Of a stretch of 64,000 nt of DNA, positions 804 through 36,456 are shown one piece after another. The stretch comes from Pseudomonadota bacterium. GTDB taxonomy: Bacteria; Desulfobacterota; Desulfobacteria; Desulfobacterales; JBDRRP01. Numbering within the stretch: the first letter of the stretch is position 1; every line of letters starts with the position of its first letter. Where the stretch lies: NCBI GenBank assembly GCA_043825735.1, contig JBDRRP010000115.1, positions 62,001 to 126,000 on the forward strand, written 5' to 3'. The translations under genes were made by a program, and so were the position numbers. The notes beneath the pieces were generated by a model that was given only the letters and a program-made list of their open reading frames with translations, was not told the DNA's origin and ran no database searches.

Positions 804-879
804 GCCACCGTAGCTCAGTTGGTAGAGCAGCTGATTCGTAATCAGCAGGTCCGCGGTTCGACTCCGCGCGGTGGCTCCA
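804..879 (+). tRNA. tRNA-Thr (anticodon CGT)
   Basis: 76 nt. Acceptor GCCACCG/CGGTGGC, D arm AGCTCAGTTGGTAGAGC, anticodon stem GCTGA/TCAGC with loop TT-CGT-AA, T loop GGTTCGACTCC, encoded CCA. Confidence 0.97.
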
Positions 880-7419: not shown

Positions 7420-7446
7420 GATGCCAAGGACTCCAAGGAGAGCCAC

Positions 7447-8495: not shown

Positions 8496-8516
8496 TTACG
8501 ATGAAAGAACAAAAAT

Positions 8517-11481: not shown

Positions 11482-11484
11482 AGT

Positions 11485-11546: not shown

Positions 11547-11751
11547 GCCGCGCACTGCGCCTATCATTCTACAATTGGCGGCGCACCAGGTTGAATAGAG
11601 GAACATGGCAACCATTCTTCATGACAACTGCGACAGAATTAGACCGACGTCAGCCTAATCCACTTTGAATACGACGTCTATTAAATATGAATGTTAGACC
11701 ACCAGGTGAGAAACGTCTGATCAACCATAAACGATATTTGGGAACAGCAGA

Positions 11752-12747
11752 ATGACGAAGAAATCGCTAAATCGAAGCCTGGGTGTCGCGAAGGCGACCA
11801 AGCAGGATGAATTTTACACCCAGCTCTCGGACATCGAGAAAGAACTACGGCATTACACAAAGCACTTCAAGAACAAGACCGTCCTGTGTAACTGTGACGA
11901 TCCCAAGGTCAGCAACTTCTTTCACTACTTCTCGTACAATTTCGAGAAGCTTAAGCTAAAAAAGCTGATCACCACCTGCTACAAGAATTGCGATGCCGAT
12001 CTGTTCAGCCAGCACAAAGAGGAAAGAGGACTCTACCTCGAATACGACGGTGACAAGAACGATAACCGAGTCCCCGATCCGGACGAAATCGGCATTTACA
12101 AGCTAAAAGGCGACGGTGATTTTCGCAAAGAGGAATGCGTTAAGCTGCTCAAGCGAGCGGATATCGTCGTCACCAATCCGCCGTTTTCATTGTTCAGGGA
12201 ATATCTCGAGCAGTTGATGATGTACAAGAAGAACTTTCTGATCATTGGGAATCACAATGCGATCATCTACAAAGAGATTTTCCCGTTGATAAAGGACAAC
12301 AAGATGTGGCTGGGCAATACGCACCCTGTCGCCTTCGTCGTCCCCGATCATTATGAAATGCGAAAGGTGAGGAGTTGGCGCGACGAGAACGGAACGAATT
12401 GGCGCAGCCTGGGAAACGCCTGTTGGTTCACCAACCTTGACATCTCCAAGCGTCATGATGAGTTACCGCTATACGAAAAGTACACGCGGAAGAAATTTCC
12501 AAAGTACGACAACTACGAGGCGATTGAGGTCGCGCGATATAAAGAAATTCCGGATGACTACGACGGCGTGATGGGCGTCCCGGTGACATTCCTTGAGCAT
12601 TACAATCCTGAGCAATTTGAGATCATCGGCTGCAATCGAGGCGTCGACCAAGACCCGAAAGGTGTCTACGGAAGGGGTTCGCATCTGAACGGCAAAGAGA
12701 CTTTCAAGCGAATCTTCATCCGAAATAAAAAACCAATTTTGGAGTGA
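11752..12747 (+). CDS. Adenine DNA methyltransferase, M.EcoRI family (cassette 3)
   Basis: DEFYT, VLCNCDDP, GDGDFR, DIVVTNPPFSLF, MGVPVTFL. Confidence 0.9.
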   Translation: MTKKSLNRSLGVAKATKQDEFYTQLSDIEKELRHYTKHFKNKTVLCNCDDPKVSNFFHYFSYNFEKLKLKKLITTCYKNCDADLFSQHKEERGLYLEYDGDKNDNRVPDPDEIGIYKLKGDGDFRKEECVKLLKRADIVVTNPPFSLFREYLEQLMMYKKNFLIIGNHNAIIYKEIFPLIKDNKMWLGNTHPVAFVVPDHYEMRKVRSWRDENGTNWRSLGNACWFTNLDISKRHDELPLYEKYTRKKFPKYDNYEAIEVARYKEIPDDYDGVMGVPVTFLEHYNPEQFEIIGCNRGVDQDPKGVYGRGSHLNGKETFKRIFIRNKKPILE

Positions 12748-13307
12748 ATGACATGACCGACTTTGATTACTGGAAGAAACAGTACAAGGAGACTTGGGGA
12801 CGGTCGTCTCAAAGAGAGACGGCCATTGCTGAGTATTTGGCGCAAGCGTCCGGCGAGAAGATTAAGCCAGTGGGTCTGGGGGCTGGCAGTGCAGACTTCC
12901 TTTCTGGATCGGCGTCAGCGCACGGTCATGTAAAGGGGGACGCTGACCTCGTAGTCGTTGGAACGAGTATCTACCTCGAAGTGACGGGACCGCTTGTGCC
13001 GAGTGTCGATCAAAACCAAGACCTGTGGGTCAGGCCTGACAAAGTTGCAAATGCCAACAAGAACAAAATCTCACACGAGACATGGGTTGTGCATCACCTG
13101 CCAAAGAACAATCTGATTCGAGTTGTGCCACTTGATAGTGGGTTTTGGCAAGCGTTAGAAGCTGGCGTCTTTCCTATAGTGACGCCTCGCATTCGTGGAG
13201 TGCAGGAGCGATATCACGCTATCCCGGCAACGCACTCATGCGTCAAATCTTGCAGTGTACTGATTCAGAGACTTACGAACATTTCGACTAAAGGACAAGC
13301 CCGATGA
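12744..13307 (+). CDS. Hypothetical protein, possible restriction-endonuclease fold
   Basis: GDADL...YLEVTG resembles PD-(D/E)xK. Overlaps both neighbours by 4 nt. Confidence 0.55.
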   Translation: MNDMTDFDYWKKQYKETWGRSSQRETAIAEYLAQASGEKIKPVGLGAGSADFLSGSASAHGHVKGDADLVVVGTSIYLEVTGPLVPSVDQNQDLWVRPDKVANANKNKISHETWVVHHLPKNNLIRVVPLDSGFWQALEAGVFPIVTPRIRGVQERYHAIPATHSCVKSCSVLIQRLTNISTKGQAR

Positions 13308-14398
13308 AGATCGAACTCAAAGAGATCACGGTGCAGAAGTTGACCGACGGCTTCGCGGACAACGACGAGCATGGAGTCGTCGCGTATGGCGGATATCTCG
13401 ACATTCGACCGCCGTATCAAAGAGAATTCATCTACAAGGACAAGCAGCGAGATGCGGTGATCGACAGCGTGCGCAAGGACTTTCCGCTGAATGTGATGTA
13501 CTGGGCGGTGCGCAATGACGGCCATTACGAGGTGATCGATGGGCAACAGCGCACAATTTCGATTTGTCAGTACGTCAATGGAGACTTCTCTATCGTCGGG
13601 CTCGCGTTCCACAATCTGCAAAACGATCAGCAACAACAAATTCTTGATTACAAATTGATGGTTTATTTCTGCTCCGGGACTGACAGCGAAAAGTTAGATT
13701 GGTTCAGAACCATCAACATTGCTGGCGAGGAACACACCGATCAGGAATTGCGCAACGCGGTTTATGCTGGACCGTGGACTGCCGACGCCAAGCGCTATTT
13801 CAGCAAGACGGGTTGCCCTGCCTACGGGCTGGCGAGTGACTACGTAAAGGGCATCGCCATCCGGCAGGAGTATCTTGAAACGGCTATCGGATGGCACGCG
13901 AGCGCGACGTCGGAGGGCACGATCGAAGAGTACATGTCGAAGCATCAGGACGATCCCAACGCCGTCGCACTGTGGAACTACTTCCGGAGCGTCATTGACT
14001 GGACCAAGGCGTCCTTCCCGAAGTATCGCAAGGAGATGAAGGGCGTGAAGTGGGGGTCACTCTACAACGAGTTCGGGAGCAAGGCACTCGACGCCGGCAA
14101 GCTGGAGAAGCAGGTTGCAAAGCTAATGATGGACGACGATGTGCAGCGAAAACCGGGAATCTACCCTTATGTGCTGGATGGTGACGAAAGGCATCTGAAT
14201 ATCCGCTCGTTCTCCGACAACATGAAGCGGGAAACGTACGAAAGGCAAAAGGGTGTCTGCGTCAAGTGCAAGAAAAAATTTGAACTACACGAGATGGAAG
14301 GCGATCATATCAAGCCCTGGCACGAGGGCGGGAAGACTAACGCGGCGAACTGCCAGATGCTATGCAAAGAAGACAACCGAAGAAAGTCGGGGAAATAG
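13304..14398 (+). CDS. DUF262 (GmrSD-like) plus HNH nuclease
   Basis: YQREF, IDGQQR, FRTIN; C-terminal CVKC...DHIKPW...NCQMLC. Confidence 0.9.
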   Translation: MKIELKEITVQKLTDGFADNDEHGVVAYGGYLDIRPPYQREFIYKDKQRDAVIDSVRKDFPLNVMYWAVRNDGHYEVIDGQQRTISICQYVNGDFSIVGLAFHNLQNDQQQQILDYKLMVYFCSGTDSEKLDWFRTINIAGEEHTDQELRNAVYAGPWTADAKRYFSKTGCPAYGLASDYVKGIAIRQEYLETAIGWHASATSEGTIEEYMSKHQDDPNAVALWNYFRSVIDWTKASFPKYRKEMKGVKWGSLYNEFGSKALDAGKLEKQVAKLMMDDDVQRKPGIYPYVLDGDERHLNIRSFSDNMKRETYERQKGVCVKCKKKFELHEMEGDHIKPWHEGGKTNAANCQMLCKEDNRRKSGK

Positions 14399-18157: not shown

Positions 18158-18553
18158 CTATCTGAGTTCCATCTCCTCGTCGGCGGCTGTGAACTCAACC
18201 GCATCGCCGTCGGTCGTCGGCATGACATGGTAGGCATCGAGCACGTTCACCGAATTGAAACGGGCGTCCTCGTAGGCAAAGGCGGCAGCCAGGTTGTACG
18301 CTGGCGATCCATAATCCAGGTCCTCAATCCACTGGTAGTCCAGGTGCTCGCCGAAGGACAGGTCACCGGCCTCGATAAACATCCGCTTGAGAAGCCACCA
18401 GTACGGGCCATAGCCACGGTAGCGCTTCGGGTTTTTGAGTAGCAGAGCCCGGATCGCGGCCATCATTGCGGCGACCCATTCGGGCTCGGTCCTGGCGCCG
18501 GATCCGGCGGCGATCACCTTGTCCAGGTCCTCACGGTTTGGTTTCTCGATCAT
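18158..18553 (-). CDS. Ulx-like protein (DarB packaging helper in P1)
   Basis: Coupled downstream of darB as in P1; similar size. Confidence 0.55.
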   Translation of the reverse strand: MIEKPNREDLDKVIAAGSGARTEPEWVAAMMAAIRALLLKNPKRYRGYGPYWWLLKRMFIEAGDLSFGEHLDYQWIEDLDYGSPAYNLAAAFAYEDARFNSVNVLDAYHVMPTTDGDAVEFTAADEEMELR

Positions 18554-21500
18554 GTCATCACCTTATAAATCTCATCCAGCGGATAGGAGGAATTGACATA
18601 CCAGTACGCGCCGTCCAGTTGCATTGTCGTGCCGGAAAAAAATTGAGCCCCGTAGCGCACCTTGAGGATCTCTTTGACCCGGAAAAGCACCCCGCTCTTG
18701 CCGTGATTGTCCTGGAAAAACCACTTTTTGAATGCTGGGATCTCAACATCCCTGTACTTTTTGTACCGGCCCGTGCGCCGGCCCGGCAGAACGGTATTGG
18801 TCCGGTTGATTTTCACCTCGATCCCGAGTTGCGCGAAGGCGGCGCGGGCGTCTTCCGGCACCTCTTTATAGTTCGGATCGGCCTTGAGCCGCTCGTTTTC
18901 CTGCCGTTCCCGCTCAGCCCGGGCCTCGTCTTCGGCCTTACTTTGGGCCTCAACTAACGCGATAACCTTCTTGTCCAGTTCATCTTTGGCCGCGTCGTAG
19001 CATGTTACGATGACACGCATGATTTCGTCCGTGTTGTCGCCCAGGCTTTTGGCCGCGAGGCGTACATCGCTATACAGCTTGGACCGGTAGTCGCGCAACT
19101 GCATGTAGTCTGGATCGTTCGACCCCCCGCGGATGTTCTCATCGATCCACGTTTTGGTGTAGTCGGCGTAGAAGGCCCGGATTTCGGTCTCGGTGGCCTT
19201 TTTGCCGTACTCAGCCGCGGCGCCCTCCCAGTCGGATCCAAAGACCTTTTCCATGCAGCTTTTCAGGGAGTAGTCAACATAGCTGCGCTTCTCTCTGGCC
19301 GCGGCCAAATAGGTCTGGGCCAGCGCCTTGCGGAACACCTCGCTGCCGGGCTCAGGAAAAATGAGTTGGGCCGCATCATATATCCGTAACCAGGCATGGC
19401 CGGTGTCGGTGCGGAGCAATCCATCTCCATCCATCTTGATTTCTGCGGCGTGGGCCTCAAAGGTCTCTTTGTCGATCCCGCCTTCCATCAGGTTGAGGTA
19501 GGTGTGCCGCTTGGACAGCAGCTTCTTTAATGCCAACTCGGCTTCCGAGTAGGCCACCTTTACAAGATCCGGCAGCTTGGAAAGAAGATTTGCCCGGATA
19601 TCATTTCCGCCCGCGCCCTTTACCCAGGTATCGCCGCGCATCGAATAATAGCCGTGCGATACAACCTCCTCAAAAGAAACCGCCTTTGGGTCCGCATGCA
19701 CGCTGGCGATTTTAAAAATCCCGAGCAGATCGCCGTCCTTGTCTCGCGCTTCATAAGTCTCACCCACCGCGTACAGCGTGCCGTCCAGGCCGGCCACCGC
19801 ATTCTGTGGGTTATCGACCAGGGCCGCGTCAAACGGCAACTCGCCCTTTCCAGCCTTCAGTTTAAGGATGCTCTGGCTCTGCTTTTTCTTGGTTTCAAGG
19901 TCAGCTCGCTTGCGGGCGAAAACCTCATCCAGGGATTTCAAATCACCCTCTGCCAAAGACAACTCACGCTTTTTTCTGGTCAACCGCTCCGCCATAGCCG
20001 TCTTGGCCTCGCCCGGATCCATCTTGGCCCCGGCCGATTTCAACTCATCGATCTGCTTTTGGAGTTTGGGGATTTTCTCATCAAGTTTTTCCTTGCGCTT
20101 TTCCTTGGCGTCTTCAAGCCCAGCCAGAGCCTCGGCGACGTTGGACAGCTGCTGGAGCATGTTAACCAGGCGCTTGCGCTCACGCTCATCGCGATCGGCT
20201 TTTTGTTTTGCGAGCCGCCCCATCCGCCGGCGCTTGGCCTCTTCCGGATCGTCGGCGAGAAGATCAAGCATGTCATCGGCCCCAAGGGCGTTGGCATTCT
20301 CGGCCTCGGTCGCCTCGCCGGTCAGGAGTTCGTGCATCCAGCCAGACTTTCGCTTGAGCAGGTCCAGCCGGTACATATCAAAGGACCCCTTGCCCATGTA
20401 ATAGTAGATCTGGATGTGTGCGGCCGTGTTTCCCTGCCGGACCCCGCGGCCGTTTCTCTGCTGGATGCTGGCCGGCGTCCATGGCAGGGTCAGGTGGTGG
20501 ATGGCCGTGGTGCCCTTTTGGAGGTTGACACCGACCTCGGCTTTTTTATTTGCAATGACGATCTTGACCTTGCCGGAATTGTACTGGTCGGAGATCTGCT
20601 GGATCTTATCGCCGGCGGCCTCATCTGCGTTGATAATGGCGATCATGTCCCTTGACAGGGGGATGTGGTGGGACAGAAGCCGCTTGATCTTTCGGTGCTG
20701 GCTCTTTTCCTCGGTAAAAACGATCTGTTTGCCGTGGGCCTCCAGGTGCTTTCGAATGTTCTCCACCAGCTTGGCATACTTGGGCGCCATCGGATGGGTG
20801 ATGTCATTTTCATCCAGCCCGTGGCGCTTAATTTTCGTTGCGATGATATCCTCGGCGGCCTCCGGCACCACCATGATAAACGAGTCCCCGTCGGTCTTGA
20901 ATTTCGGTTCGCAGGGGACCTTCACCTTGATCTGCTTGCCGTTTTCGTCCTCCTCGTAGCCGTCGACCGTTGCGGGTAACTCGCTGGCCAGCGCCTCGAC
21001 CTTGGCCCGGTCCTGGGCCTTGAAGACAAAGGTCATTTGTCGTTTGTAGAGATCCGTGTCCATGGTAACCCGGTCCATTTTCCGGATCACGGAGAACATG
21101 CTGACCTTGGATCCGGGGACAGAAGCGGCCTTGGCGTCCTCTCGGAGCGATACGTATAGGTTCGACTGCTCTTCGGTCAGGTCAACATCTTCGTGCAACT
21201 CGTCGTGGGGCGGCAGTTCCAGGCCGACATCCTCGGCGGTTTTGAGCACCGTGTATTTGTGGAACAGGTTCCTGAGCCCGTCCAGGTTCCTGAACCCGGT
21301 CAGGCCGTCTTTGCTCTTCACGTCGCCGGAGACCATGACCTTGTCCACGGTCTCAATCTTGCCGAACACCCGCACAAAGTCATCGACGGTATAAACCCCG
21401 AACCGCTCGAATTCCTCGATCGGGGCCACGTATGACAGCATGTTGTATACTTCGAACGGGGAGTTGGTGACCGGGGTGGCGGTCATGGGGTAAACCCCGC

Positions 21501-24500
21501 GCCCGTCGTTGTTGTCCCGCAGGTAGGCGCACTTCATGGTCATGTCTAGGGCCCGCTTGCTGCTGGGGGCAGAGGGGAGATAGGCGATCTGCGATGTCTG
21601 CTCACCAGCTTCATAGCTATTTTTGAACCCGTGAGCCTCATCAAAGATGATCGAAGTGAACCCCATGTCCTCAAAATAGGGAAGCTCGCCCTTTTTGGCC
21701 GTGCCCTCATCCGAGTACTTGCCCTCGATGCGCGCCTTGGCCTTGTCATCGTCGTAGGAGACTTTGCGCTCCTCGGCCTCGCCGTCTTTCCCGGCCGCGC
21801 CGGCGCTAAGGGCCGCAGCGTTTTTGTCCGAGATGAGGTGCCGCTCAACCATTTTGGCAGCGTACCCCGCCTTGGTATCGGGGCGCATGGGGATCGATCC
21901 AAACTTTTCCTGGGTCATCACGACCAGGCTTTTGGACGTGGCGGGAATCTCCCACATTTTTTCCCAGATGTCCTCCTTCGACTTCCGGGACATGAGCACG
22001 GGTTGCATCACCAATTCGCCGGTGATCTTGTTGCGCTTTGGCTCGCCCTTCTCGTTCAGGACCTGCTCCATGACAAGGGTCCCGTCCTTGTTCAGCTTGG
22101 GCTCGACTCCGACGAAAAGCACGTCGCTCATATCGGCGATCAGGTCGTGACACTCCTGGTACCAGTTGGAAAGGACAGAATTGGGTACCACGATACAGTC
22201 TTTTTTGGTCCGGCCCATCTGCTTGTTGTAGAGGTGCAGTCCAATGGCAACCATCGTCTTGCCCAGTCCGACATCCAGGCCCGCTATACCGCGGCCCTCT
22301 TCGGACAGCCGGCGGATTGTCTGGCTCTGGAACCCGTGAGGCCGCTTGTTGCCGCTCATCCCCTCGATTTCCAGAGGCTCAAGCTCATAGTCGTGGGCCA
22401 CGAAGGCGTTGAATTTGCGGTTATAGATGGCCGCCACCCGGTCCATGTCCGGATGCTGCTGCATCCAGGCGTTGAACCCTTCGGTGATGTTTTTCACCTC
22501 CTGCTTGTAGGCCTCGATGCGTTCCTGGGCGTCCTCGCCGCTCGATGTCACCCGGCCGCCGTTGAGATACTTGTCAAACTGCCGCGCGAACCCGGCCTTG
22601 TCAGGGACACCGATAAACTTGCCGAATGGGGCGTCCGGATCCTCGACAAATTTTGAAACAAACGTGACCTTGCCACTGACCGGATCCTCCCTCGGCTCCT
22701 GCTCGAACCGGCCGTATTGGAGGTTCGGGTACCCGTGCTCACGCAGGTAGTCGATCAGGTATTGTTTCGGGAACCATTTTTCCTGAAGGCCTATATAAAT
22801 GTTTTCCGGCAGCGTGATTTTCACGCGCCGGTTGATGGCATCGATCTGCGCCCCATATTTGGCGATGATCCGCTCGTCCGTCTCATCGGCCATGGCGGCG
22901 GTCATTGCCGCGACCTTTGGATACACATCGCCCGAGGTGTACCGGCCCATGGGCTGAATGAAACCGTCGGGCGTCAGGGCGATATGCTCGACGCTGGCAA
23001 GGTCCCCCAGTGATTCGAGTTTCATACCCCCCGCATAGAGTTGTTTCACGTCCTCCAACTCGATGTTCTGGATGCCCTCCCTGATGAACAGGTGCTCGAC
23101 GATGGACTGGATATTGGACGGGTCGAACTGGATCTGCCCGCTGTCCTGGACGCCGGACAGGAGGGCGGAGAAAGTGCCCTTTTCGTCCACCGCGTTCATG
23201 AACAGGCCAAAAGCCCGCGATGATTCGCCGGTGACCTGGATGCGGTTGCCCTTCGGATGCCCGAACCGCTCGACCTCTGTAACGACCAGGGCCTGCAACC
23301 GCTCGCGCTCCGCATCGTCCGGGTTTGCCTGGAGGCGCCCCAGAAGCCCGCCGATGATCGTGCCCCGGAACGCCTGCTCCCGGAACTTGTCCGAGGGCTG
23401 GCTCATCGCGAATTCCACCGCGTCTTTGTGGAGCGGGGAGAGAAGCTCTGGCCACGACTTGTAGACCGCGAACAGGTTGTCGGCGCTCATCGCCAGGGGG
23501 CCGCCCGGGCTCGAAAGCACGGCCCTCAGCTCTGATAGAGTGGATGCACCATAGCGCCCTTTGTCCAGGGCCATGTCGCCGGGTTTGGTCTCGATGATCG
23601 GGACCCACTGGCCGTCCCGCATCTCATGCTGGCGCCCATTGATGGTCTTGCGGTCACCCTCGATGTAACTTTTGGTCTCGGCCGGTGCGCTTTCGAGCAT
23701 GTCCCAGTCGATCCGGGATTCGAACCGCGCGGCCAGCTTTTGGCGGATCACAACCGCGTCGATATCGCCGTCCACCACCTCCCGGGACCACCGCTCGCCC
23801 TCGACCTTGGGGACCCATTTGCCCTGGATGAACCGCTTGCCCTCACCGAGCCAGTAGAGGCCTTGAGTAAACTCATCCCAGACCGCGCGGGCGGCCTTCA
23901 GGGTCTCGAAGGGAATGTCGTCGATCCGGTCCAGCAATTCCCGCGGGTGCTTCTTGAACACCACGATATCGACCACAGTATCGGTGCCCTGGGTCTTGAA
24001 GGTTTTACTGGGCAGCTTATGGGCGCCCAGGAATTCAGCCTTTTTGCTCAACTGGATGCGGAACTCCTCCCAGCGAGCCCCCTTCGCGCCGACAATGTTG
24101 GTCGGCACCACCAGGCAACAAAGCCCGCCGGGCCGGCATTTATCCAGGGCGCGGAGGAGGAAATACCGCTCGATTCGCTTCTCGGATTTGTAGGCCGGGT
24201 CGTCGTGCATCGCGGCCCCGCGGGCGTCGCCGAACGGCACGTTGCCGGTCACGGCGTCGAAACTGTCGTCCGGGGTCGATGCCACCAGGCGCTCGAATGA
24301 TCCGGTCTGGATCCCGTCCTCTGGGTTGAGGAGGGATGCGATCTTCGAACCTACCGGGTCGATATCGGTCCCGGTGACGATCACGCCCTTGGGTTTGGTG
24401 GCCGGGAAGACTCCGGCGCCGACGCATGGGTCCAAAACATTACCTGCCGTGAACCCGTTGATGGCCATGGCGTCCCACATGCCCTGGGCCACACCGGTCG

Positions 24501-24840
24501 GGGTATAATACTCAAACTGACTGTTCTCGGTCAGTCCGCCGCGGCCCGAATACTGTTCCAGGATCTGGCGGTCCTCATCGGTCATGTCCTCGGGGTCCTG
24601 GACTCGCGACAGGATATCCCTGGCCATCGCGTTGATGTTTTCCCGGGCCTTAAGGCCTCGGACCTTGAGGCCGAAATCGGATCTCGTGTCTTTGTAGTCG
24701 CCCGGGGTGATGGCTGGCTCACGGACCAGGAAGACATCCCTGAACACGGCCTCTATCTCGCTGAAGGCCGTGGCCGAACGGATGGCAGCAATGGCGTCGG
24801 CCGCCGGGGAGTTGGCGCGTTCCACGATGAGGACGGTCAT
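18550..24840 (-). CDS. darB: DarB-like N6-adenine methyltransferase / SNF2 helicase fusion
   Basis: VLDPCVGAGVF, GNVPFG; GLDVGLGKT, DEAH, TATPVTNS, QRNGRGVRQGN; 2096 aa in P1-like context. Confidence 0.88.
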   Translation of the reverse strand: MTVLIVERANSPAADAIAAIRSATAFSEIEAVFRDVFLVREPAITPGDYKDTRSDFGLKVRGLKARENINAMARDILSRVQDPEDMTDEDRQILEQYSGRGGLTENSQFEYYTPTGVAQGMWDAMAINGFTAGNVLDPCVGAGVFPATKPKGVIVTGTDIDPVGSKIASLLNPEDGIQTGSFERLVASTPDDSFDAVTGNVPFGDARGAAMHDDPAYKSEKRIERYFLLRALDKCRPGGLCCLVVPTNIVGAKGARWEEFRIQLSKKAEFLGAHKLPSKTFKTQGTDTVVDIVVFKKHPRELLDRIDDIPFETLKAARAVWDEFTQGLYWLGEGKRFIQGKWVPKVEGERWSREVVDGDIDAVVIRQKLAARFESRIDWDMLESAPAETKSYIEGDRKTINGRQHEMRDGQWVPIIETKPGDMALDKGRYGASTLSELRAVLSSPGGPLAMSADNLFAVYKSWPELLSPLHKDAVEFAMSQPSDKFREQAFRGTIIGGLLGRLQANPDDAERERLQALVVTEVERFGHPKGNRIQVTGESSRAFGLFMNAVDEKGTFSALLSGVQDSGQIQFDPSNIQSIVEHLFIREGIQNIELEDVKQLYAGGMKLESLGDLASVEHIALTPDGFIQPMGRYTSGDVYPKVAAMTAAMADETDERIIAKYGAQIDAINRRVKITLPENIYIGLQEKWFPKQYLIDYLREHGYPNLQYGRFEQEPREDPVSGKVTFVSKFVEDPDAPFGKFIGVPDKAGFARQFDKYLNGGRVTSSGEDAQERIEAYKQEVKNITEGFNAWMQQHPDMDRVAAIYNRKFNAFVAHDYELEPLEIEGMSGNKRPHGFQSQTIRRLSEEGRGIAGLDVGLGKTMVAIGLHLYNKQMGRTKKDCIVVPNSVLSNWYQECHDLIADMSDVLFVGVEPKLNKDGTLVMEQVLNEKGEPKRNKITGELVMQPVLMSRKSKEDIWEKMWEIPATSKSLVVMTQEKFGSIPMRPDTKAGYAAKMVERHLISDKNAAALSAGAAGKDGEAEERKVSYDDDKAKARIEGKYSDEGTAKKGELPYFEDMGFTSIIFDEAHGFKNSYEAGEQTSQIAYLPSAPSSKRALDMTMKCAYLRDNNDGRGVYPMTATPVTNSPFEVYNMLSYVAPIEEFERFGVYTVDDFVRVFGKIETVDKVMVSGDVKSKDGLTGFRNLDGLRNLFHKYTVLKTAEDVGLELPPHDELHEDVDLTEEQSNLYVSLREDAKAASVPGSKVSMFSVIRKMDRVTMDTDLYKRQMTFVFKAQDRAKVEALASELPATVDGYEEDENGKQIKVKVPCEPKFKTDGDSFIMVVPEAAEDIIATKIKRHGLDENDITHPMAPKYAKLVENIRKHLEAHGKQIVFTEEKSQHRKIKRLLSHHIPLSRDMIAIINADEAAGDKIQQISDQYNSGKVKIVIANKKAEVGVNLQKGTTAIHHLTLPWTPASIQQRNGRGVRQGNTAAHIQIYYYMGKGSFDMYRLDLLKRKSGWMHELLTGEATEAENANALGADDMLDLLADDPEEAKRRRMGRLAKQKADRDERERKRLVNMLQQLSNVAEALAGLEDAKEKRKEKLDEKIPKLQKQIDELKSAGAKMDPGEAKTAMAERLTRKKRELSLAEGDLKSLDEVFARKRADLETKKKQSQSILKLKAGKGELPFDAALVDNPQNAVAGLDGTLYAVGETYEARDKDGDLLGIFKIASVHADPKAVSFEEVVSHGYYSMRGDTWVKGAGGNDIRANLLSKLPDLVKVAYSEAELALKKLLSKRHTYLNLMEGGIDKETFEAHAAEIKMDGDGLLRTDTGHAWLRIYDAAQLIFPEPGSEVFRKALAQTYLAAAREKRSYVDYSLKSCMEKVFGSDWEGAAAEYGKKATETEIRAFYADYTKTWIDENIRGGSNDPDYMQLRDYRSKLYSDVRLAAKSLGDNTDEIMRVIVTCYDAAKDELDKKVIALVEAQSKAEDEARAERERQENERLKADPNYKEVPEDARAAFAQLGIEVKINRTNTVLPGRRTGRYKKYRDVEIPAFKKWFFQDNHGKSGVLFRVKEILKVRYGAQFFSGTTMQLDGAYWYVNSSYPLDEIYKVMT

Positions 24841-26086: not shown

Positions 26087-27922
26087 TTATGCGTTCCCGA
26101 CAGCCTCCCGGTAACTGGCCTCGGCCAACTCGATCGAGGGATAGATTGTCAGGCTCACCACCTCCCCGGAGTCGGCGTCATAGATCCGGACCGCGCCCTT
26201 GTCGCCTTCCAGCGCCTGGAACAACTCGTAGTCGACGCCTTCGATCCGCTCAACGGCCACCGTCCTGGACTCGCCGATCTGCCCGATTCGGTGGATCTCG
26301 CCTACCTGCTTTGGCGGCGCCGGCCCTGGTTCGTCATAAATGTTACCGCCGGCCGGGTGCAGGTTTTTGAAGCGGGTTTTGTCGGTGGGATCAACTGAAA
26401 CCGATTCCATCCCTGAAGGCTTACCAGTTTCGGTCAGCCTGGTCAGGGTGAGCATGAACCCGCTATCCCGGTCCAGGGCGTAGCGGTTGCCGTCATCGTC
26501 GGTGAGGATATCTCCCCTGGTCAGTTTCTGCCCGTTGTGGCGATTGGTGCCGGGGTCGTAGCGGAGCGGGGATCCTACTCCGCCATCGTCGGATATTGTC
26601 CCTCTGCCGGAATCAGAACCGGTTCCGGGGTTTTGACCGCTGGCTGCGCCTTCGGGTACGGCGCTGGGAATGGGATGATTTTCGACGGCACTGAGGAGCC
26701 CGTCAAGGTAGGTTTCGATGGATTTTCCTTCATCGTGGCTCTCATACTTGTAGGTTTCGATCAGGTCGCCGAGTTGGTCGGCGATGGTGGCCTTGACTGC
26801 CTCGATGGTTTCCCGGATGTTATCAAGGCCGGCAACTTTTTTCAAGGCGTTCGAGACTATCCCCGGCGTGGCAACCCTGTCTTCTATCGCAACGAGCAGT
26901 TCCTCGATCGCGCCGTCAGACACATAATCCTCATGCTCGATGGAGAGAATTGACCGGTATTTTTCTTCGATCCGCCGGTCAACCATGAACCCGGCACTCA
27001 CAAGTCCCTGCCGGACAAACTCGGCCTCGATCTCCTCAACAGTCTTCGCATTGCGGATCCGCTTCCTCATCGACCACCCAGGATCCTGGTCGGCCGAGAA
27101 CAACGGATCGTCGGTATGGGCAACGAGTCGCGCCGTGGCCGGTTTCGAGCCGGGTGCATCGCCAGGCCCGGCCTCACTCCACCCGTTCTTTTTGGCGTAC
27201 TCGGCCAGTGCGGCCTCAGCGGCTGCCCGGTCCGTGAAAAACCCGCCTGCCCCGCCAGCGACGTCCCCGGTGCCAGACGCGGCCCGGATCTTGATCCGAT
27301 TCCCGCGGTCATAACCCTTCAGGTCGTTGTGCCGGTACCATGCGTAGTTTCCGGCAACCCCGGGGCCGACCATGACAAACTGCCCCTTGTCATCGACGTA
27401 GGCGGATTCACCAATGAGTTGGTGCCGTGTCATCCCCACCTCGACGAGCACCGCCTCAATGTCCTCGATGCCTCTGGCGGCCAGGACCTTTGTCTTCCAT
27501 GCCGGCCGCTCGCCGGCGTAGACCCGCTTGGCCTCGGTGTGCTCTGCCCACCACTTGGCGATGTAGTTTTCTTCCAACTGCTTTTTGATGGCAAGATCGG
27601 CCCTGCAAGCATCGATCGTGTACTTGGGCCGCGACAGTTCCTTGGCGAGTTGATCGTCATAAAAGAGGGCGTCCTTTTTTCGGACGCGGGCCTTGGCATT
27701 CCGGATCCGGTGCGCGAGCATTTTTTCCGCGGACTCAAAGCGCATCGGTTCTGGAACCCACCCGGTGTAAAGGGCTGTTTTGCCAAGTTCGTGATAAGCA
27801 CCAACGGCCGCCTCCACCTCTGGATCAGGGCGGTTGCCAAAGCGAGAGACCCCCCACTTCAGAACCTTTCTGCTGTCTGGCGTCCCCGATGTGTAGACGG
27901 TAAAAACCCTATGATCAGGCAT
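26087..27922 (-). CDS. Multi-domain (polyvalent-type) hypothetical protein
   Basis: 611 aa; short globular segments with G/P linkers; two copies of the DarB-N-like helix. Confidence 0.7.
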   Translation of the reverse strand: MPDHRVFTVYTSGTPDSRKVLKWGVSRFGNRPDPEVEAAVGAYHELGKTALYTGWVPEPMRFESAEKMLAHRIRNAKARVRKKDALFYDDQLAKELSRPKYTIDACRADLAIKKQLEENYIAKWWAEHTEAKRVYAGERPAWKTKVLAARGIEDIEAVLVEVGMTRHQLIGESAYVDDKGQFVMVGPGVAGNYAWYRHNDLKGYDRGNRIKIRAASGTGDVAGGAGGFFTDRAAAEAALAEYAKKNGWSEAGPGDAPGSKPATARLVAHTDDPLFSADQDPGWSMRKRIRNAKTVEEIEAEFVRQGLVSAGFMVDRRIEEKYRSILSIEHEDYVSDGAIEELLVAIEDRVATPGIVSNALKKVAGLDNIRETIEAVKATIADQLGDLIETYKYESHDEGKSIETYLDGLLSAVENHPIPSAVPEGAASGQNPGTGSDSGRGTISDDGGVGSPLRYDPGTNRHNGQKLTRGDILTDDDGNRYALDRDSGFMLTLTRLTETGKPSGMESVSVDPTDKTRFKNLHPAGGNIYDEPGPAPPKQVGEIHRIGQIGESRTVAVERIEGVDYELFQALEGDKGAVRIYDADSGEVVSLTIYPSIELAEASYREAVGNA

Positions 27923-30900
27923 AAGTCTCCCCCCCGATCAGCTTCTGATACAGCCCAACCCATGCCGACTCCCCGACGAACTGGAGCGGGATCTTTACAT
28001 GCTCTTCGGGGCCGGTAACCAGTTCCCGGAAATCCTCGACCCGCATCGTGGACACAGGCCCGAGAAACAGGGGCGAATCATACTGCTTGAGGTAGGCATC
28101 GATCGCGGCCCGGCGGTTCGGGAAGCCAATGAAAACCTTGTCCTCATCATAAAATTCAGGACAGGCGCAATCGTGGACGTGCTCACCGCACTGGGGGCAG
28201 GTCTCGGAACCCCAGGCCTTTACCTTGGCGATGTCGTGTTGCTTGACCACGTAAACATGCTGGGCGCCCCGGTCCGGCCCGACATAGACATCGATGCCTT
28301 CGTCGTCCTCGCCCTTTGTCCGGCGGATGTAGCCGTAATCGAAGTGCATCTTGGTTTTCCACTCATGCCCGTCCGGATCCGTGCCCTTTCGAACCGACCC
28401 GGCCTTATTTTCGACCGATATCGGCATGCCTTGGAACTGGTAGCGGTCCTGAAGGGTGAAGCGTTTTTTCTTAAACTCAACCGCGGCTGTCTTCCCGGCA
28501 GACTCGAAAAGCCCCTTCTGCGGCTCGCTCTCCTGGATCGCGCGCGCCAATAATTCTGATATCGTCGGCTCTGGCCGGTTTTCCTCCTGGATTTTCGATT
28601 GCTGCAGGTCCATAAAAAACGCCCGCAGTATCCCGGCCATCCGGCCGAAAACTGCACCCATGCGGGTCTGGCGGCGAATATTGGCATCAATGTACCGAGC
28701 GATCGGCTTTGCGTCCTCGGACACGGACTCGAACAGGCGTCCCTGGGCGATGACCTCATCGATCTGTTGCGCATCTGAGCGGGACCGCCTCACCAGGTTC
28801 ACGGCGGCCACCAGGGCCGCGGTGAGTTTGTCTACGGCCGTCTTCGCGGGGGGCAGGACCTTCAGCTTGGCGAAGTCCTTGGCGCCGATCGTCAGCGCGG
28901 CCAGGACGTTTTTCAGGTCCGGGTTTGCCTCCTCGGCCACCAGCGCGAGCAGGTTCGCGTCACCGTAGGCGCGGTGGAATATCGCGGCCCTAGCCCGGTC
29001 CGCGAGTTGGCGCGTCGCCTGGCCCGAGGCCGTCGTCAGGCCGGTGGCCTCCTGTGCGCCCAGCATACCGACAAACTTTTCCATGAAGGCGCGATTGCCG
29101 GCACTGAGCAGGTCGCCGTCATCGGTGGGCCGGAGAGCGTCCAGGGCGGCGTCGGGCAGGCGCCGGGCGTCCATCTGGGCAAGCTCCGCCGGGCTCATGG
29201 TGCCCATGTCCGTGACGTTGGACTTTTCGGCCACGTCGGTCCTCGAGATTTCGGTCCGCCGGATCCGAACCAGGACCGGCCGGGTGAAGCCTTCCATGGC
29301 GGCTTTATCGATGCCGAACTTGGCCGCGTTGGCTCCCAGCCAGGCCCGATATTGCGGGGCATCATCGCGCGCGTAGCGCTTCCGTAACGCGATGGTCCGC
29401 CCGTTGCCGGACTCAACCACCAGGTCAGGGCCGACAATCGGGGACCCGGTGGAGGTCTGCAAGGATCCGCCCATCCGGTCCGGGTTGATCTTGGTGGCGA
29501 TCTGCTCGACTTGGAGTTGCATCGCATCCCGGGTGCGGTCCCGCGGTTGGAGTTCGGCCGGGAACTCCTCATTTACTGCCATGCTTTCGGTGTGAGATGT
29601 CACCATGTCGCCGGCATCAACCACTGCATACTGGAGGTGAAGCATCCGGTCATCGCTCAGGTAGGAGCGGGTCGGCCGGCCGGTCACCACTTTCGCTTTG
29701 ATCTTCTGCCCGTTTCTGGTAATATTCTCCGCATCAAAAGGAGGTGGCGGAATGTCACTGAGTGCCAATTTCAGGTTTGCGGAAAAAGAGGATGTGCCCT
29801 TTGCAATCGAACGGTCCTGCGGCAAATTGTTCCGGATGGACGGCAGGTCGATGGAGAAGTGGGTGGAGATCACCGACCCGGACAGCTTCGCCAGAATCAG
29901 GTCCAATGTATCCGAGGTCTCGGAATCCGAGGCGATGCTGCTGGCCGATGAACTGGAAGAAGACATCGCGGCCTTGCGGTAATATTTCACGCTCAACTTC
30001 CGGAGCGTCTCAGAATACCCCATCGCCATATAGGCCAAATCGCCATTTTTCTCCGTGTCTTTGGCGATAGAGTCGATCTGGCGTTTCACCTCGTAGATCT
30101 TGTGCCCCAGCCCCTTTTCTTTGGCGGTTAGAATAGCTTCGGTGTTGAGCTGCAGCTCGCACAGGTGCCCCCCGACGCTGGCGGCGAAGAGAACATCCAT
30201 GTAGCCGTCATCTGTCGGTTTCTCGAATCTGTTCTTCGCCTTGTAGACCGCCGGGTCGGCCACGATCATGCGGTAGGCCGCCGCCACCTGCTCGACCGTA
30301 TCGAAGATGATCATCCCGCCCACGATATCGGTGAGCCGGGCCGCAACCCCGCCGTAGTCGTTGGCCACCTTTTCGCCGGCCCGTTTTTTCCCCTTGAGCC
30401 CTGGTCTCAGCATCAGCTTTCCGCCGGTGCGTTTCGCGTAGGACTCTGCCCACTCCCGGAATGCCGGTTGTGCCTTCTCGGCCTGCTCGTAAACCGCATC
30501 CAATGATTTTTGGGCCGCGACCTGCTGCTTGAGGCTTCTTTTGATTTCGACTACGGCCTCGGTCTCCCCCAGATCCATCAAGGCTCGCAGGGTTGTGTTG
30601 CCGTCCAGCACCTTGAACTTGCCGTTGCCCATTTCGAAGACAGAGATAGGCTTGCGCTTCTCGCCCATCCCATCTTTAGCCGCGGCCATGCGCCCATGCG
30701 CCGTCTTGAGCCGCTCCGGGTCCGCGGCCTCACGGGGCACCAGGTCAGACAGCTTCATGACCACCGACCGGAAGGTGTCCTTGAAATAGGGCGAGTTGTG
30801 GCTCGGCGGCGCTCCGAATACCTTTCGGAAAATCCCCGAAATGTCGTCCATGTCGTCTGCCAGGGCCAGGTCGCTTCGGAAGTCGTAGCCTCCGAGAGCC

Positions 30901-31574
30901 GCATCCTCCATGATGCCCATATCACGCACGACCGGTACCGCCAGGTCGTCATAGAGTTTGACCATGCCTGGATCCTTTTCATTTGTGATTTCGAGGTCCC
31001 CGTGGCCGAGACCTTTCAGCCATGCCAGGACCCGAGGGATCTGCTCCGGTTCGGCGGCCCGGGCGGTGAAGATTTTCACCGTGTCGCCGTCTGCCAGGTG
31101 CTGGCGCAGGCGGGCGAGCATTGATTCAACCGGCGGGCCGATCTCTCCGGCACCGGCGGTCTGGGCCAGGGTGCCGTCCAGGTCGAACCCGACCCACGGC
31201 GCCCAGGCCGACTCGGCAACCATGCCCACCGGATCCTCGCCCCCGCCGTCGTCCAGCATTTCGGATGGGACAAAGCCCTGGACCTCGAAGTCGGTCAGGC
31301 TGTCATCGGCCCGGGCCAGAAGGGCGGAATAGATGTCCACAGGGCGGGCCAGGTCCAAAGAAACGGCGGTACCCCGCAGGCCACGGCCGTGGTATCGGAA
31401 GTAGTCCTGCACCAGTCGGCCGGCCCCGGGGCTCCCAAGGTCATCGACAGTCACCGCGGCCGGCAGGTCCCACTCGGTCGGTTCGATCCGGATCTGAGCG
31501 AATCCGGCGGCAGTGGTGATGCCGAAAAAGTATTCTGAGGCCGGGTAGACCGGCAAAGCGTCGTCTGACATCAC
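27915..31574 (-). CDS. Polyvalent protein: HAD, ParB-like, RelA/SpoT-like, DdrB-type ParB and InPase-like domains
   Basis: FDLDGTL/IFTAR/YDD; VLDGNT; GLK...EK, LTDIV, GYMD, ELQ, HKIYE; LQPRDR/ESGNGR; ISVENKAGSVR/DYGYIRRT/DEDKV. Confidence 0.82.
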   Translation of the reverse strand: MMSDDALPVYPASEYFFGITTAAGFAQIRIEPTEWDLPAAVTVDDLGSPGAGRLVQDYFRYHGRGLRGTAVSLDLARPVDIYSALLARADDSLTDFEVQGFVPSEMLDDGGGEDPVGMVAESAWAPWVGFDLDGTLAQTAGAGEIGPPVESMLARLRQHLADGDTVKIFTARAAEPEQIPRVLAWLKGLGHGDLEITNEKDPGMVKLYDDLAVPVVRDMGIMEDAALGGYDFRSDLALADDMDDISGIFRKVFGAPPSHNSPYFKDTFRSVVMKLSDLVPREAADPERLKTAHGRMAAAKDGMGEKRKPISVFEMGNGKFKVLDGNTTLRALMDLGETEAVVEIKRSLKQQVAAQKSLDAVYEQAEKAQPAFREWAESYAKRTGGKLMLRPGLKGKKRAGEKVANDYGGVAARLTDIVGGMIIFDTVEQVAAAYRMIVADPAVYKAKNRFEKPTDDGYMDVLFAASVGGHLCELQLNTEAILTAKEKGLGHKIYEVKRQIDSIAKDTEKNGDLAYMAMGYSETLRKLSVKYYRKAAMSSSSSSASSIASDSETSDTLDLILAKLSGSVISTHFSIDLPSIRNNLPQDRSIAKGTSSFSANLKLALSDIPPPPFDAENITRNGQKIKAKVVTGRPTRSYLSDDRMLHLQYAVVDAGDMVTSHTESMAVNEEFPAELQPRDRTRDAMQLQVEQIATKINPDRMGGSLQTSTGSPIVGPDLVVESGNGRTIALRKRYARDDAPQYRAWLGANAAKFGIDKAAMEGFTRPVLVRIRRTEISRTDVAEKSNVTDMGTMSPAELAQMDARRLPDAALDALRPTDDGDLLSAGNRAFMEKFVGMLGAQEATGLTTASGQATRQLADRARAAIFHRAYGDANLLALVAEEANPDLKNVLAALTIGAKDFAKLKVLPPAKTAVDKLTAALVAAVNLVRRSRSDAQQIDEVIAQGRLFESVSEDAKPIARYIDANIRRQTRMGAVFGRMAGILRAFFMDLQQSKIQEENRPEPTISELLARAIQESEPQKGLFESAGKTAAVEFKKKRFTLQDRYQFQGMPISVENKAGSVRKGTDPDGHEWKTKMHFDYGYIRRTKGEDDEGIDVYVGPDRGAQHVYVVKQHDIAKVKAWGSETCPQCGEHVHDCACPEFYDEDKVFIGFPNRRAAIDAYLKQYDSPLFLGPVSTMRVEDFRELVTGPEEHVKIPLQFVGESAWVGLYQKLIGGETYA
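29698..29745 (+). promoter_or_regulatory. Internal sigma70-like promoter and RBS for the nested antisense gene
   Basis: TTGATC, 16 bp spacer, TAATAT with extended TG; then AAAGGAGGT. Confidence 0.6.
29752..29982 (+). CDS. 76-aa acidic protein fully nested antisense within the polyvalent gene
   Basis: AGGAGGT six bases upstream of the ATG; natural-looking sequence, while the host frame reads as a Ser-rich linker here. Confidence 0.7.
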   Translation: MSLSANFRFAEKEDVPFAIERSCGKLFRMDGRSMEKWVEITDPDSFARIRSNVSEVSESEAMLLADELEEDIAALR

Positions 31575-34626: not shown

Positions 34627-36456
34627 TCAGGTGTTGATCATAGGGATGCTGATATCTGGTATTTTCCACTTCGTTTTGTCAGTGATAAGCGGGCTCGGAA
34701 TGTGATTTTCTTTAATACTCCTGTCGATGTGGTAGGACATATTTCTGGCCCACTCGCGCCCGCCCATCTGTTCGGCCATGATATAGAGATACATGAACAT
34801 CCGCGCGGTCCGGCCGGACTTGAAATATCCAAGGACCGTTTGCTCGCCAGGCCCAGTTTTCAGCATCGCCACATGCTGGTTTTTCCGCCACCCGGATGTG
34901 ATCACATATTCGGATCCCTGGATCCTGGCCTCGATGTCTCTGCTTTTCTTTTCCAGTTCCTTGTAAAACGCCTTTCCTGCCTCCTCCACGGTCCGCTTCT
35001 CAGCCGTGACCGCGTTGTCAGATTCTATCGCCGTGCGCTCAAGCTCTCCCATGGGCGTCCGCATCACCCCGACCATGAGTTGAAACATTTCCGGGTCCCG
35101 GTCCATCAACTCCACACACCCGCTGGGGTGCGCAAACTGCTGCATCCCCATGGACAGGATCTCGGTGTAGCCATCCCGGTAAACCTTGCCGACGTAGGCG
35201 TCGAAAAACTTGTCCTCGTAGGCGATTTCGTCAGATTTAAAGAGTTTGTTTTTTTTGATCCGACGGAGCGTTTTGGGAGTGGCACCGCTTGACTTGCGGC
35301 CGGTCCGGATGTCCAGGAAATCGTTAGCCATTGCTTTGATCCGCTGGTGGCGTTCGAGCAGATGGCCCATCTCATGCCACAGGGTCACTTTATTGAAGGT
35401 CCCATCCATGCTGATCGTGGCCTCGACAATAGCAGCACTCGCCCGCCTCTTCCCCTTGGTCTCGATCGTCACCCGGTTCGCCCGGCCGCCGGTCAGCCGG
35501 TAGAACTCCGCCATGTCCTTTCGAACCTGCTCCTCGGTGTAGCCAATTTTGCGCAGGCGCCGCTTTGCCCCGTCGGTGATGGTCTGACTGCCGGCCCAGT
35601 CGTCGGCCGCCTCCTGCGTGATCTCAGACGTTTCCAGGGCGTGATCCAGCACCCGCCTGCGGAGGTCGCCTTCGGCGGACGTTCGTTCGACATGCAGTTT
35701 CCCCAGTTCGGCCTCGATGTCCTTTGTGCGCTCCCAGTGCTCGGAGTTGGCCGCCCGCCGCATCAGGAGCACTTCATTCGTAATGGCGCTGATCTTTTTT
35801 TTGATCGGCGACACAACTTGGTTGTATTCCGCCGCAATCCTTGCCTGTTCCTCACCGTATGCGTCGCGTGGAAGCTCACCGCGTGCGATTTTCAGGTTCA
35901 GGTCGGTCATGCCTGCGATATATTCGTCGTGAGCCTTTCGGAGCGCATCCTCCGCCGCGAAAAGACCCGCTCGCTCCTTATACTCGTCGATTTCTCGGCC
36001 CTTGGTGGCGGCCAGCAGTTTCGATGATGCCTCGATGATTTTGGCCAGTTTGTAGATTTTGCCGACGATTTCGGCCAGCGCCGCGTTCTGACTGTGCACC
36101 GCCTCGGGTAGCGCGCCTGCAGCGAGATATGTCTCCCTGGCAATCTGGCCAACGGGCCGGTCTGGCTTGAGGGCATCGATATCGGCCAGAAATGCGTCAT
36201 AGTCGGCGCCGATCATCTCCATGTCGTCCCGGTAATGGCGCACGTTAAGGAATATGTGCGCCCCCCACTCGGCCCGGTCTATCGGGTTGACAGCCGCCTT
36301 GGCATGGCGGACCAGTGTCAGGGCTTTTTCGGCCCTGGCAACCCGATCTTTCCAGTTGTCGACAGAGAAATAGAACGTGGAGGCGACCACGGCCGCCAGG
36401 TCGTCAAAGGTCATCGCTGCGGTAATGGCCGCAGCGATATGTTCAGGTACCGCCAT
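34627..36456 (-). CDS. Zincin-like metallopeptidase-domain protein of the Dar locus
   Basis: LWHEMGHLLE (HExxH) with downstream YTEILSMG; helical N-terminal region. Confidence 0.75.
   Translation of the reverse strand: MAVPEHIAAAITAAMTFDDLAAVVASTFYFSVDNWKDRVARAEKALTLVRHAKAAVNPIDRAEWGAHIFLNVRHYRDDMEMIGADYDAFLADIDALKPDRPVGQIARETYLAAGALPEAVHSQNAALAEIVGKIYKLAKIIEASSKLLAATKGREIDEYKERAGLFAAEDALRKAHDEYIAGMTDLNLKIARGELPRDAYGEEQARIAAEYNQVVSPIKKKISAITNEVLLMRRAANSEHWERTKDIEAELGKLHVERTSAEGDLRRRVLDHALETSEITQEAADDWAGSQTITDGAKRRLRKIGYTEEQVRKDMAEFYRLTGGRANRVTIETKGKRRASAAIVEATISMDGTFNKVTLWHEMGHLLERHQRIKAMANDFLDIRTGRKSSGATPKTLRRIKKNKLFKSDEIAYEDKFFDAYVGKVYRDGYTEILSMGMQQFAHPSGCVELMDRDPEMFQLMVGVMRTPMGELERTAIESDNAVTAEKRTVEEAGKAFYKELEKKSRDIEARIQGSEYVITSGWRKNQHVAMLKTGPGEQTVLGYFKSGRTARMFMYLYIMAEQMGGREWARNMSYHIDRSIKENHIPSPLITDKTKWKIPDISIPMINT

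Follow-up and report, generated by a model that had tools for sequence, protein, structure and literature searches.

A candidate immunity gene nested antisense within the gene of a DdrB-like prophage protein that contains a Tas1/Apk-like synthetase domain

The stretch of DNA analyzed here (64,000 nucleotides of contig JBDRRP010000115.1 from a Desulfobacterales genome; called the window below) contains part of a P1-like prophage. One of its genes (27915..31574, minus strand) is a single open reading frame (ORF) for a DdrB-like polyvalent protein of 1,219 amino acids (aa; P0001), identified by Pfam and PHROG matches and by alignment with P1 DdrB. Structure and profile comparisons place a Tas1/Apk-like alarmone synthetase domain in the interior of this protein (aa ~354-538; 29961..30515, minus strand). 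Right behind this domain, the plus strand carries a gene of 76 codons (29752..29982; product P0002), which overlies aa ~531-608 of P0001 and is absent from the initial annotation of this DNA. Judged from the sequence comparisons reported below, this small gene is almost certainly real, and it encodes a candidate immunity protein of the Tis1/IapK kind. We regard it as probable that the domain is an alarmone toxin delivered by the virion and that the small gene, nested antisense, confers immunity to it.

Results

The synthetase domain is closest to Tas1

The structure of P0001 aa 226-640 was predicted with a mean predicted local distance difference test score (pLDDT) of 76. The first-ranked structural match of the synthetase domain is Tas1 (6OX6 chain A) with Z 15.3 and a root mean square deviation (rmsd) of 2.3 over 167 residues, followed by a chain with Z 13.1. 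Tas1 was also ranked first by Foldseek, was the sole match in a PDB sequence search at E < 0.1 and was found by profile search with E 1e-12 (next match 0.007). The Pfam family RelA_SpoT (PF04607) stays below its cut-off, with E 0.0016 for the whole protein and 9e-5 for the domain cut out. A RelA/SpoT-like domain with DIVGG in place of the usual Arg had been proposed here in the initial annotation; the fold is borne out by the structure match and the domain is wider than noted (30515-29961). DIVGG is seen in the query, and the Arg is absent from all 13 relatives of P0001 (query included), which were found with aa 265-640 among 7,999 scored candidates and, where named, come mostly from Desulfobacteraceae-type genomes. 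P0046 is assigned to Desulfatirhabdium butyrativorans by NCBI/UniRef.

The motifs of the domain are DIVGGM in Syn2, GYMDV in Syn3 and ELQLN in Syn4, followed by GLGHKIYE. The catalytic Asp of Syn2 and the Glu-x-Gln of Syn4, in which the Glu is E472, align with D and EIQ of Tas1. Across the family E, Q and N of Syn4 are invariant, the Syn2 Asp is nearly invariant, and GY of Syn3 and GxGH are likewise invariant or nearly so. The signatures of (p)ppGpp synthetases (Syn2 DxxGxR, Syn3 YxSxH, Syn4 EIQIRT) are not matched by DIVGGM, GYMDVL and ELQLNT. In published work, (p)ppGpp synthetases are marked by SxH and IR, Apk enzymes by GxN in Syn3 and Apk2 by RYT in Syn2 (PMC12226406). SxH and IR are absent from the domain, and LN of Syn4 resembles VN of Tas1. 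The RelA-like domain is thus nearer to the Tas1/Apk toxins than to (p)ppGpp synthetases. It lies inside the DdrB-like protein and not at the C-terminus, and Pfam gave no PAAR or MuF match.

Tandem frames of 267 and 296 codons on a Photobacterium replicon (L042:2729-4573) also match the synthetase profile, with no match to the small-gene profile.

A small gene is nested antisense behind the domain

The Ser-rich linker that follows the RelA-like domain in P0001 is the reverse strand of the P0002 gene, and aa ~531-626 have the look of a reverse-strand translation. The gene is preceded by the Shine-Dalgarno sequence AGGAGGTG (29739..29746, plus strand), 5 nt before the ATG, which is read as PPP(F) in the host frame. 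A putative promoter, TTGATC-16 nt-TAATAT with TG before the -10 box (29698..29725, plus strand), was recognized by eye with 8/12 consensus matches.

Small-gene homologues made up 36 of 37 candidates; they are 50-93% identical and mostly 75-77 aa long. A profile search for the small protein yielded 53 representatives, two of them false; P0066 and P0100 were rejected as members, looking like leucine-rich-repeat proteins, and L028 was dropped as a locus with an unrelated 325-aa ORF. The small gene is nested in a long reverse ORF, right behind the synthetase domain, at seven distinct loci with differing carriers: the window, L001, L018, L020, L033 (1,256 aa, a different carrier), L037 (2,675 aa) and L029, where the reverse ORF passes through the small gene and stops 26 codons beyond (the repeat loci L030, L032, L036, L044, L045, L057 and L058 are left out of this count). 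These seven comprise every distinct, intact locus of the clade for which DNA was at hand. A ribosome site of the GGAG/GGAGG type lies upstream in 7/7 of these loci, and boxes resembling -35 and -10 elements were seen by eye in all seven. A reverse-frame profile, built solely from reverse translations of 18 free copies of the small gene, matches all 13 full-length relatives immediately after the synthetase domain; the fourteenth protein searched, P0105, was not matched.

Selection follows the small gene

The antisense ORF could be a miscalled shadow of the big gene, as iddB in P1 appears to be. Shared wobble phase makes shadows seem conserved, and iddB is annotated antisense in ddrB in the same phase. 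Both frames look conserved here because third positions are shared. To separate them, the ratio of non-synonymous to synonymous differences (pN/pS) was compared over 67 codons at 14 loci. For six nested pairs it is 0.20 in the small gene and 0.34 in the host frame; for 45 free pairs it is 0.24 in the small gene and 0.36 in the reverse frame, which in free pairs cannot belong to the big gene. In the flanking domain, host position 1 is more variable than position 2, and this order is reversed in the overlap in 3/3 pairs. The selection pattern follows the small gene.

The free copies argue against a shadow as well, since they exist where the reverse frame is short or broken, without a long reverse ORF, and start, stop and ribosome site are conserved. 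The model of P0002 is confident (pLDDT 88), whereas the host-frame linker is mostly of low confidence, with pLDDT below 50 for 50 residues in two stretches. Free copies, fold and selection pattern together largely refute the shadow explanation, which we consider scarcely credible.

In this phase, host-frame stops arise only from Tyr, His and Gln codons of the small gene. These residues make up 0/76 of P0002 and 23/2,779 (0.8%) in the family, the members of which are related, against 8.6% in nine other phage proteins. For comparison, the same-phase reverse frame is open in 12% of 4,068 control windows taken from long open frames of the host genome, some antisense shadows included. By these sequence counts, host read-through across the small gene is maintained.

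Tis1 is the best, though weak, structural match of the small protein

Among 48,161 chains, the best structural match of P0002 is Tis1 (6OX6 chain B; Z 5.3, rmsd 3.3, 62/76 residues; next 4.2). Foldseek places Tis1 at rank 2 (E 0.62, TM score 0.42), and BFVD gave no match at E < 0.001. The independent best matches of the domain and of the small protein are thus two chains, A and B, of the same crystal, and the Tis1 match gains weight because it names the partner of the domain's own best match. Tis1-like antitoxins accompany (pp)pApp synthetases, and tRNA-targeting toxSAS use pZFD antitoxins, which have another fold than Tis1 (PMC11782079). In a distant family member, P0078, an HD/SpoT-type hydrolase is fused to the small-protein domain. 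P0002 is likely the cognate inhibitor of the synthetase domain.

P0070 contains the small-protein domain in three tandem copies. The small tandem gene of phage PHB04 scores E 0.15 against a broadened small-protein profile, and a sequence link to the canonical IapK proteins is therefore not supported; the neighbour of this gene gave no MuF match.

Weighing the toxin-immunity interpretation

Several observations weigh against this interpretation. Taken alone, the Tis1 match is weak, with Z 5.3 in the common range of the tool, 11% identity and a Foldseek E of 0.62, and P0002 has no sequence-level match to PDB, Pfam or NCBIfam. A promoter and terminator scan of the window returned 0 sites at a threshold of 9/12 (the promoter-like site scores 8/12). 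The two frames share wobble positions and pN/pS separates them only modestly; the family members share ancestry and do not count as independent. Analogy with P1 is the basis for packaging, cleavage and injection. For 26 of the 34 distinct small-gene copies, no toxin ORF lies within the fetched locus, and free copies are often found in islands beside unrelated nucleotidyltransferase genes. Within the nested clade, the Apk Syn3 motif GxN occurs in L033 only, the query having DxL. The whole nested clade, L029, L033 and L037 included, lacks the Syn2 Arg, both at the position of Tas1 and Apk2 (DLARN, RYT) and at the RSH position. Because of this absence throughout the clade, the enzyme could have low activity, none, or an altered one.

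The free copies could mean that the small gene belongs to mobile islands and has a different role, that a single capture placed it beside the domain, with which it was then carried along, and that its Tis1 likeness is that of a common small fold. That 26 of 34 copies are free, near genes for DUF6036 and RlaP nucleotidyltransferases and integrases, would fit this, as would a Tis1 score of just Z 5.3. We find it improbable, given that very divergent copies (L029 at 37%; L033 and L037 on long branches) all stand right behind the same toxin domain in differing carriers. In the tree, for which the bootstrap had not settled, nested and free copies are interleaved, and well-supported branches force at least three changes. 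At the L053/L060 locus, a toxin frame with two stops lies beside an open small-gene frame; by its sequence, this locus is a possible route from a nested to a free copy. The small gene is present in 6 of 401 sampled genomes of the class. Among the five other than the one studied here, two contain the toxin, one a weak match (a 744-aa frame), and in two none was found, these assemblies being in 300 and 580 contigs. Genomes that have free copies, with no toxin found in them, suggest that the antidote is retained by hosts.

Several loci carry two diverged copies of the small gene, in L016 and L025 in tandem. Free copies stand directly before a pair of a DUF6036-like nucleotidyltransferase and a 118-aa protein, or beside the 118-aa family alone (L004:5986-7085, L022:3788-4893, L025, L016). 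A copy at L049:1498-1764, without a toxin in the locus, is spanned by a reverse open frame of 610 codons.

The Syn2 motif gives rise to a second alternative. In the 13 relatives it reads GGM, GGT, AAT, AGT or AST, compared to RYT in Apk2 and RNT in Tas1, and tandem-type relatives keep the Arg (DIVRAT in L031, DAVRGT in L034). At the RSH position, the Arg stacks the donor adenine in FaRel2 (R95; PMC11782079). The pair could be real and the enzyme changed, that is, a slowed or dead synthetase or one with another acceptor (a defence signal or tRNA), with the small protein as a regulator and not an antidote to ATP loss. The absence of the Arg in 13/13 relatives as well as L029, L033 and L037 is in line with this, and so is the attached ParB/sulfiredoxin (Srx) kinase-like module, which perhaps feeds the synthetase: it is closest to ADP/ATP-dependent serine kinases and is attached in 13/13 relatives and L037. 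The remaining catalytic positions (Syn2 Asp, Syn3 GY, Syn4 E-x-Q-x-N, GxGH) are nevertheless invariant or nearly so, in the sequences of L029 and L033 the domain is not preceded by a ParB/Srx module, and a harmless domain would need no conserved inhibitor. A tRNA acceptor is further disfavoured by the pZFD, not Tis1-like, antitoxins with which tRNA-targeting toxSAS are paired (PMC11782079). A changed enzyme is therefore unlikely in our view, and an active alarmone toxin with its immunity protein remains the preferred reading.

The polyvalent protein is a mosaic

Five nucleotide- or phosphate-acting domains in P0001 had been described in the initial annotation, with the proposal that they form a kit which rewires host nucleotide signalling or counters defences at injection. 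Per-domain profile and structure matches recover all five, in about the same places, in one DdrB-like polyvalent protein. The DdrB-type ParB domain (aa 641-772; 29259..29654, minus strand) is matched above the Pfam cut-off (PF18763, E 2e-33) and is followed by the DdrB helical region up to aa ~1024; aa 649-980 are 42% identical to P1 DdrB. The InPase domain (aa ~1042-1185; 28020..28451, minus strand) is also above the cut-off (PF18823, E 9e-34; aa 1042-1114 and a second stretch). It contains an insert with four Cys (aa 1126-1138; 28161-28199, minus strand), for which CPQC-x-H-x-CAC had been an approximate shorthand; the actual sequence is CPQCGEHVHDCAC. The four Cys are kept in P0040, P0041, P0042 and P0048 and are missing in other relatives, and the insert is likely a small zinc-binding loop.

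The ParB/sulfiredoxin-fold module (aa ~256-347; 30534..30809, minus strand) has an invariant DGN motif and no Pfam match, and its model matches SerK (Z 11.4), SbnI (Z 9.7) and sulfiredoxin (Z 9.1). It immediately precedes the synthetase domain in 13/13 relatives and in L037. Elsewhere, the module forms a separate short ORF beside an RlaP-family nucleotidyltransferase gene (L005:4643-5029, L023:13980-14483, L014, L008), a few kb from free copies of the small gene. The HAD-like phosphatase module (aa 122-223; 30906..31211, minus strand) is the weakest of the five calls. It was judged from sequence and has no Pfam match; it has the nucleophile motif FDLDGT, matches PHROG 1238 (E 2e-5) and, below the cut-off, NCBIfam HAD models (E 0.01-0.02), and its Atlas neighbours (0.92-0.93) are named HAD or polynucleotide kinase.

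The core common to all 13 relatives consists of the ParB/Srx module, the RelA-like domain and the linker. The ddrB-ParB domain is present in 12/13, InPase in 7/13, PBECR1 in 3/13 and ART in 1/13, and the HAD stretch in the query alone. Among 50,697 phage records none covers 80% of P0001, and a single-sequence scan of viral contigs with the toxin region gave no match, alignments being required.

Predicted sites for the prohead protease follow the pattern hydrophobic-hydrophobic-Glu-Ser/Asp-Ala and occur on the minus strand at VAE121/S (31212..31214; by analogy with the cut in P1 gp23) and, by motif, at IME223/D (30906..30908; E/S in most relatives), GLFE1024/S (28503..28505; GLFE/S is also present in P1 DdrB) and VGE1202/S (27969..27971). 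Motifs of this type are also found in the pro-region of the capsid protein, in the portal, in DarA and in DarB. P1 gp23 is cleaved after residue 120, as mapped by Edman degradation, and its product starts with SVAAEM (PMC9024508); the cut MLE/SV aligns with VFE/SA of the prophage capsid protein. The motif is 15-fold enriched (28 in 17,869 aa of 13 proteins versus 75 in 720,096 in long host frames), a figure which is descriptive since the pattern was defined after being seen. HAD and InPase are probably released from P0001 as separate pieces, because predicted protease sites flank both.

The five enzymes might act jointly within a single polypeptide and, at injection, rewire nucleotide signalling or destroy defence signals. 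This would be in keeping with five folds that all act on nucleotides or phosphates and with the roles proposed for InPase and DdrB-ParB by Iyer et al. (PMC5512222). The modules do not travel together, however: HAD is found in 1/13 and InPase in 7/13 relatives, ART or PBECR modules replace them in others, and protease-type sites lie between the modules. Such a kit is thus very improbable. Of the earlier proposal, host nucleotide rewiring is upheld as a likely theme, in a P1-type Dar operon, with a RelA-like domain that resembles the Tas1/Apk toxins more than it does (p)ppGpp synthetases.

A motif of ~25 residues, similar to IRxAxSxxEIExVFRxVF, was seen by eye to be repeated among prophage proteins. 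It is located at the N-termini of DarB (18550-24840) and of a 609-aa protein (34627-36456), inside a 611-aa protein (26087-27922) and at aa ~230-253 of P0001, and lies just past predicted protease sites in P0001 and its relatives. By analogy with the N-terminal signal of P1 DarB, it is a candidate for targeting proteins to the capsid.

The element is an integrated P1-like prophage

The minus strand of the window carries the head, tail and Dar modules of a P1-like phage. The genes hdf, darA, ddrA, the DdrB-like gene, darB, ulx and the portal gene were named via Pfam or PHROG matches and occur in the order hdf-darA-ddrA ... ddrB ... darB-ulx-portal. The capsid protein is 29% identical to P1 gp23 across 98% of its length. 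A 46-bp attachment repeat is the 3' end of tRNA-Thr (834..879, plus strand), and its second copy, 87 kb away and beyond the window, adjoins a tyrosine integrase-like gene. Since host housekeeping genes flank the element and the repeats bound it, it is an integrated prophage of 87 kb, and a plasmid prophage in the style of P1 is ruled out.

At the left end of the prophage (1728-14398, plus strand), a cargo block of defence type has a lower GC content. It encodes an AAA ATPase with DUF3226, SLOG (cpYpsA), endonuclease I and HNH proteins, as well as a Cap4-nuclease-like protein beside HerA, an EcoRI-type methylase and GmrSD-HNH. The gene for the 609-aa protein (34627-36456, minus strand) lies between ddrA and a tail-fibre-like block; its product has a HEMGH zincin motif and matches the C-terminal portion of phrog_2299, the PHROG of DdrB. 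In this prophage, the metallopeptidase half of P1 DdrB seems to have a gene of its own.

Discussion

A possible mechanism can be outlined by analogy with P1 and with the Tas1/Apk toxins. P0001 would be a DdrB-type internal head protein, expressed from the late operon and packed into the head. As in P1, the prohead protease would cut at the four hydrophobic-hydrophobic-Glu/Ser sites and leave three pieces, namely HAD, InPase and a central ParB/Srx-synthetase-linker-DdrB piece. Packaging, processing and co-ejection are taken over from P1 (PMC12810830, PMC9024508), in which the counterparts are known to be packaged and co-ejected, and by this analogy we hold with good confidence that the toxin is virion-delivered. 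In the entered cell, the synthetase would move pyrophosphate from ATP onto ADP or ATP, as Tas1 and Apk2 do, and the resulting (p)ppApp synthesis would drain ATP; that (p)ppApp is the product is rather likely.

An immunity gene on the same strand behind the toxin, as for tis1 and iapK, is impossible because the toxin sits inside a long ORF. Here the gene would lie on the opposite strand right behind the toxin and be expressed from its own signals, while the host frame uses it as a spacer. The 76-aa product is expected to bind the toxin and block the acceptor site as Tis1 does. Speculatively, host-type signals might supply the antidote in the lysogen with its silent late operon, while virions are being made, and shortly after injection. 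Lysogens would then be protected, and the injected toxin would become a short pulse.

To our knowledge, fully nested antisense genes of assignable function are rare in prokaryotes. Among the papers listed by full-text literature searches, which left most subscription papers outside their coverage, we saw none that reports an immunity gene lying antisense within the ORF of its toxin. The terms "antisense" and "opposite strand" have 0 occurrences in the main text of PMC5512222, "antisense" is absent from that of PMC7824862, and the sections of PMC12691689 considered here contain nothing on such a layout. Domain types, mosaic polyvalent proteins and Apk toxin-immunity pairs are already known; what is unusual is the gene layout.

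With this layout, a toxin domain in the interior of a longer protein can retain its immunity gene. The candidate toxin-immunity pair is small, and its carrier is of a third kind; the operon has counterparts in P1 that are known to be packaged and co-ejected. Hidden partners in other polyvalent genes can be sought by a sequence signature, namely a Ser-rich spacer that directly follows an enzyme domain and ends in PP(F/L). The purpose of phage-borne alarmone toxins is stated as open (PMC10083569, PMC12226406). It is conceivable, although we think it doubtful, that antisense nesting is a general phage means of carrying a toxin in the middle of a polyvalent head protein, with the immunity gene as spacer, the toxin as insurance and orphan copies as host defence. 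If so, a cell that transcribes the phage DNA would make the antidote and recover, a cell that destroys the DNA by restriction or CRISPR would be left with an unopposed ATP drain, and the orphan immunity copies of hosts would amount to an anti-phage defence, so far unrecognised, that acts against toxins delivered by virions.

P1 DdrB of the Dar system shares the operon order and the GLFE/S motif with the protein described here and is a virion protein. It has no match to the HAD, ParB/Srx, synthetase or InPase modules, and blastp aligned one segment only. In P1, iddB is annotated as an antisense ORF in ddrB; it overlies the helical region, has no ribosome site in the 37 nt upstream and is listed as non-essential (PMC10695390). 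IddB was rejected as a homologue of P0002 (score -1.2), and the counterpart of iddB in the prophage is broken by a stop. At L040:4578-4976, IddB resembles a reverse-strand shadow of the DdrB helical region, and from its sequence it may not be a real protein.

Polyvalent phage proteins with InPase, DdrB-ParB and RelA/SpoT domains in mosaic architectures like the one found here are catalogued in PMC5512222, as the initial annotation had stated. An alarmone-like host shut-down is proposed there; in contrast to the present case, the sections considered here name no immunity partner.

The Apk2-IapK-Aph1 MuF toxins of temperate phages (PMC10083569, PMC12226406) are also encoded by prophages, as (p)ppApp synthetases joined to a head protein with a Tis1-like immunity gene behind, and SxH and IR are absent from them as they are here. 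Apk2 is, however, C-terminal on MuF, with iapK in tandem on the same strand and often aph1, a layout shown by the control locus L031 of phage PHB04. The present system differs by its DdrB-like carrier, the lack of an adjacent hydrolase gene and GGM instead of RYT in Syn2. The clade might conceivably be a third Apk family with a rebuilt Syn2 that lacks the Arg.

Tas1/Tis1 (Apk1) of Pseudomonas aeruginosa (6OX6) is the best structural match of both partners. It shares the synthetase core and the C-terminal helical region with GxGH, and its immunity protein also has 76 residues. Tas1 is a C-terminal toxin on a PAAR carrier, delivered by type VI secretion and co-expressed with tis1, whereas the domain described here is internal in a phage head protein, lacks the Syn2 Arg and has a partner gene that is antisense and fully nested.

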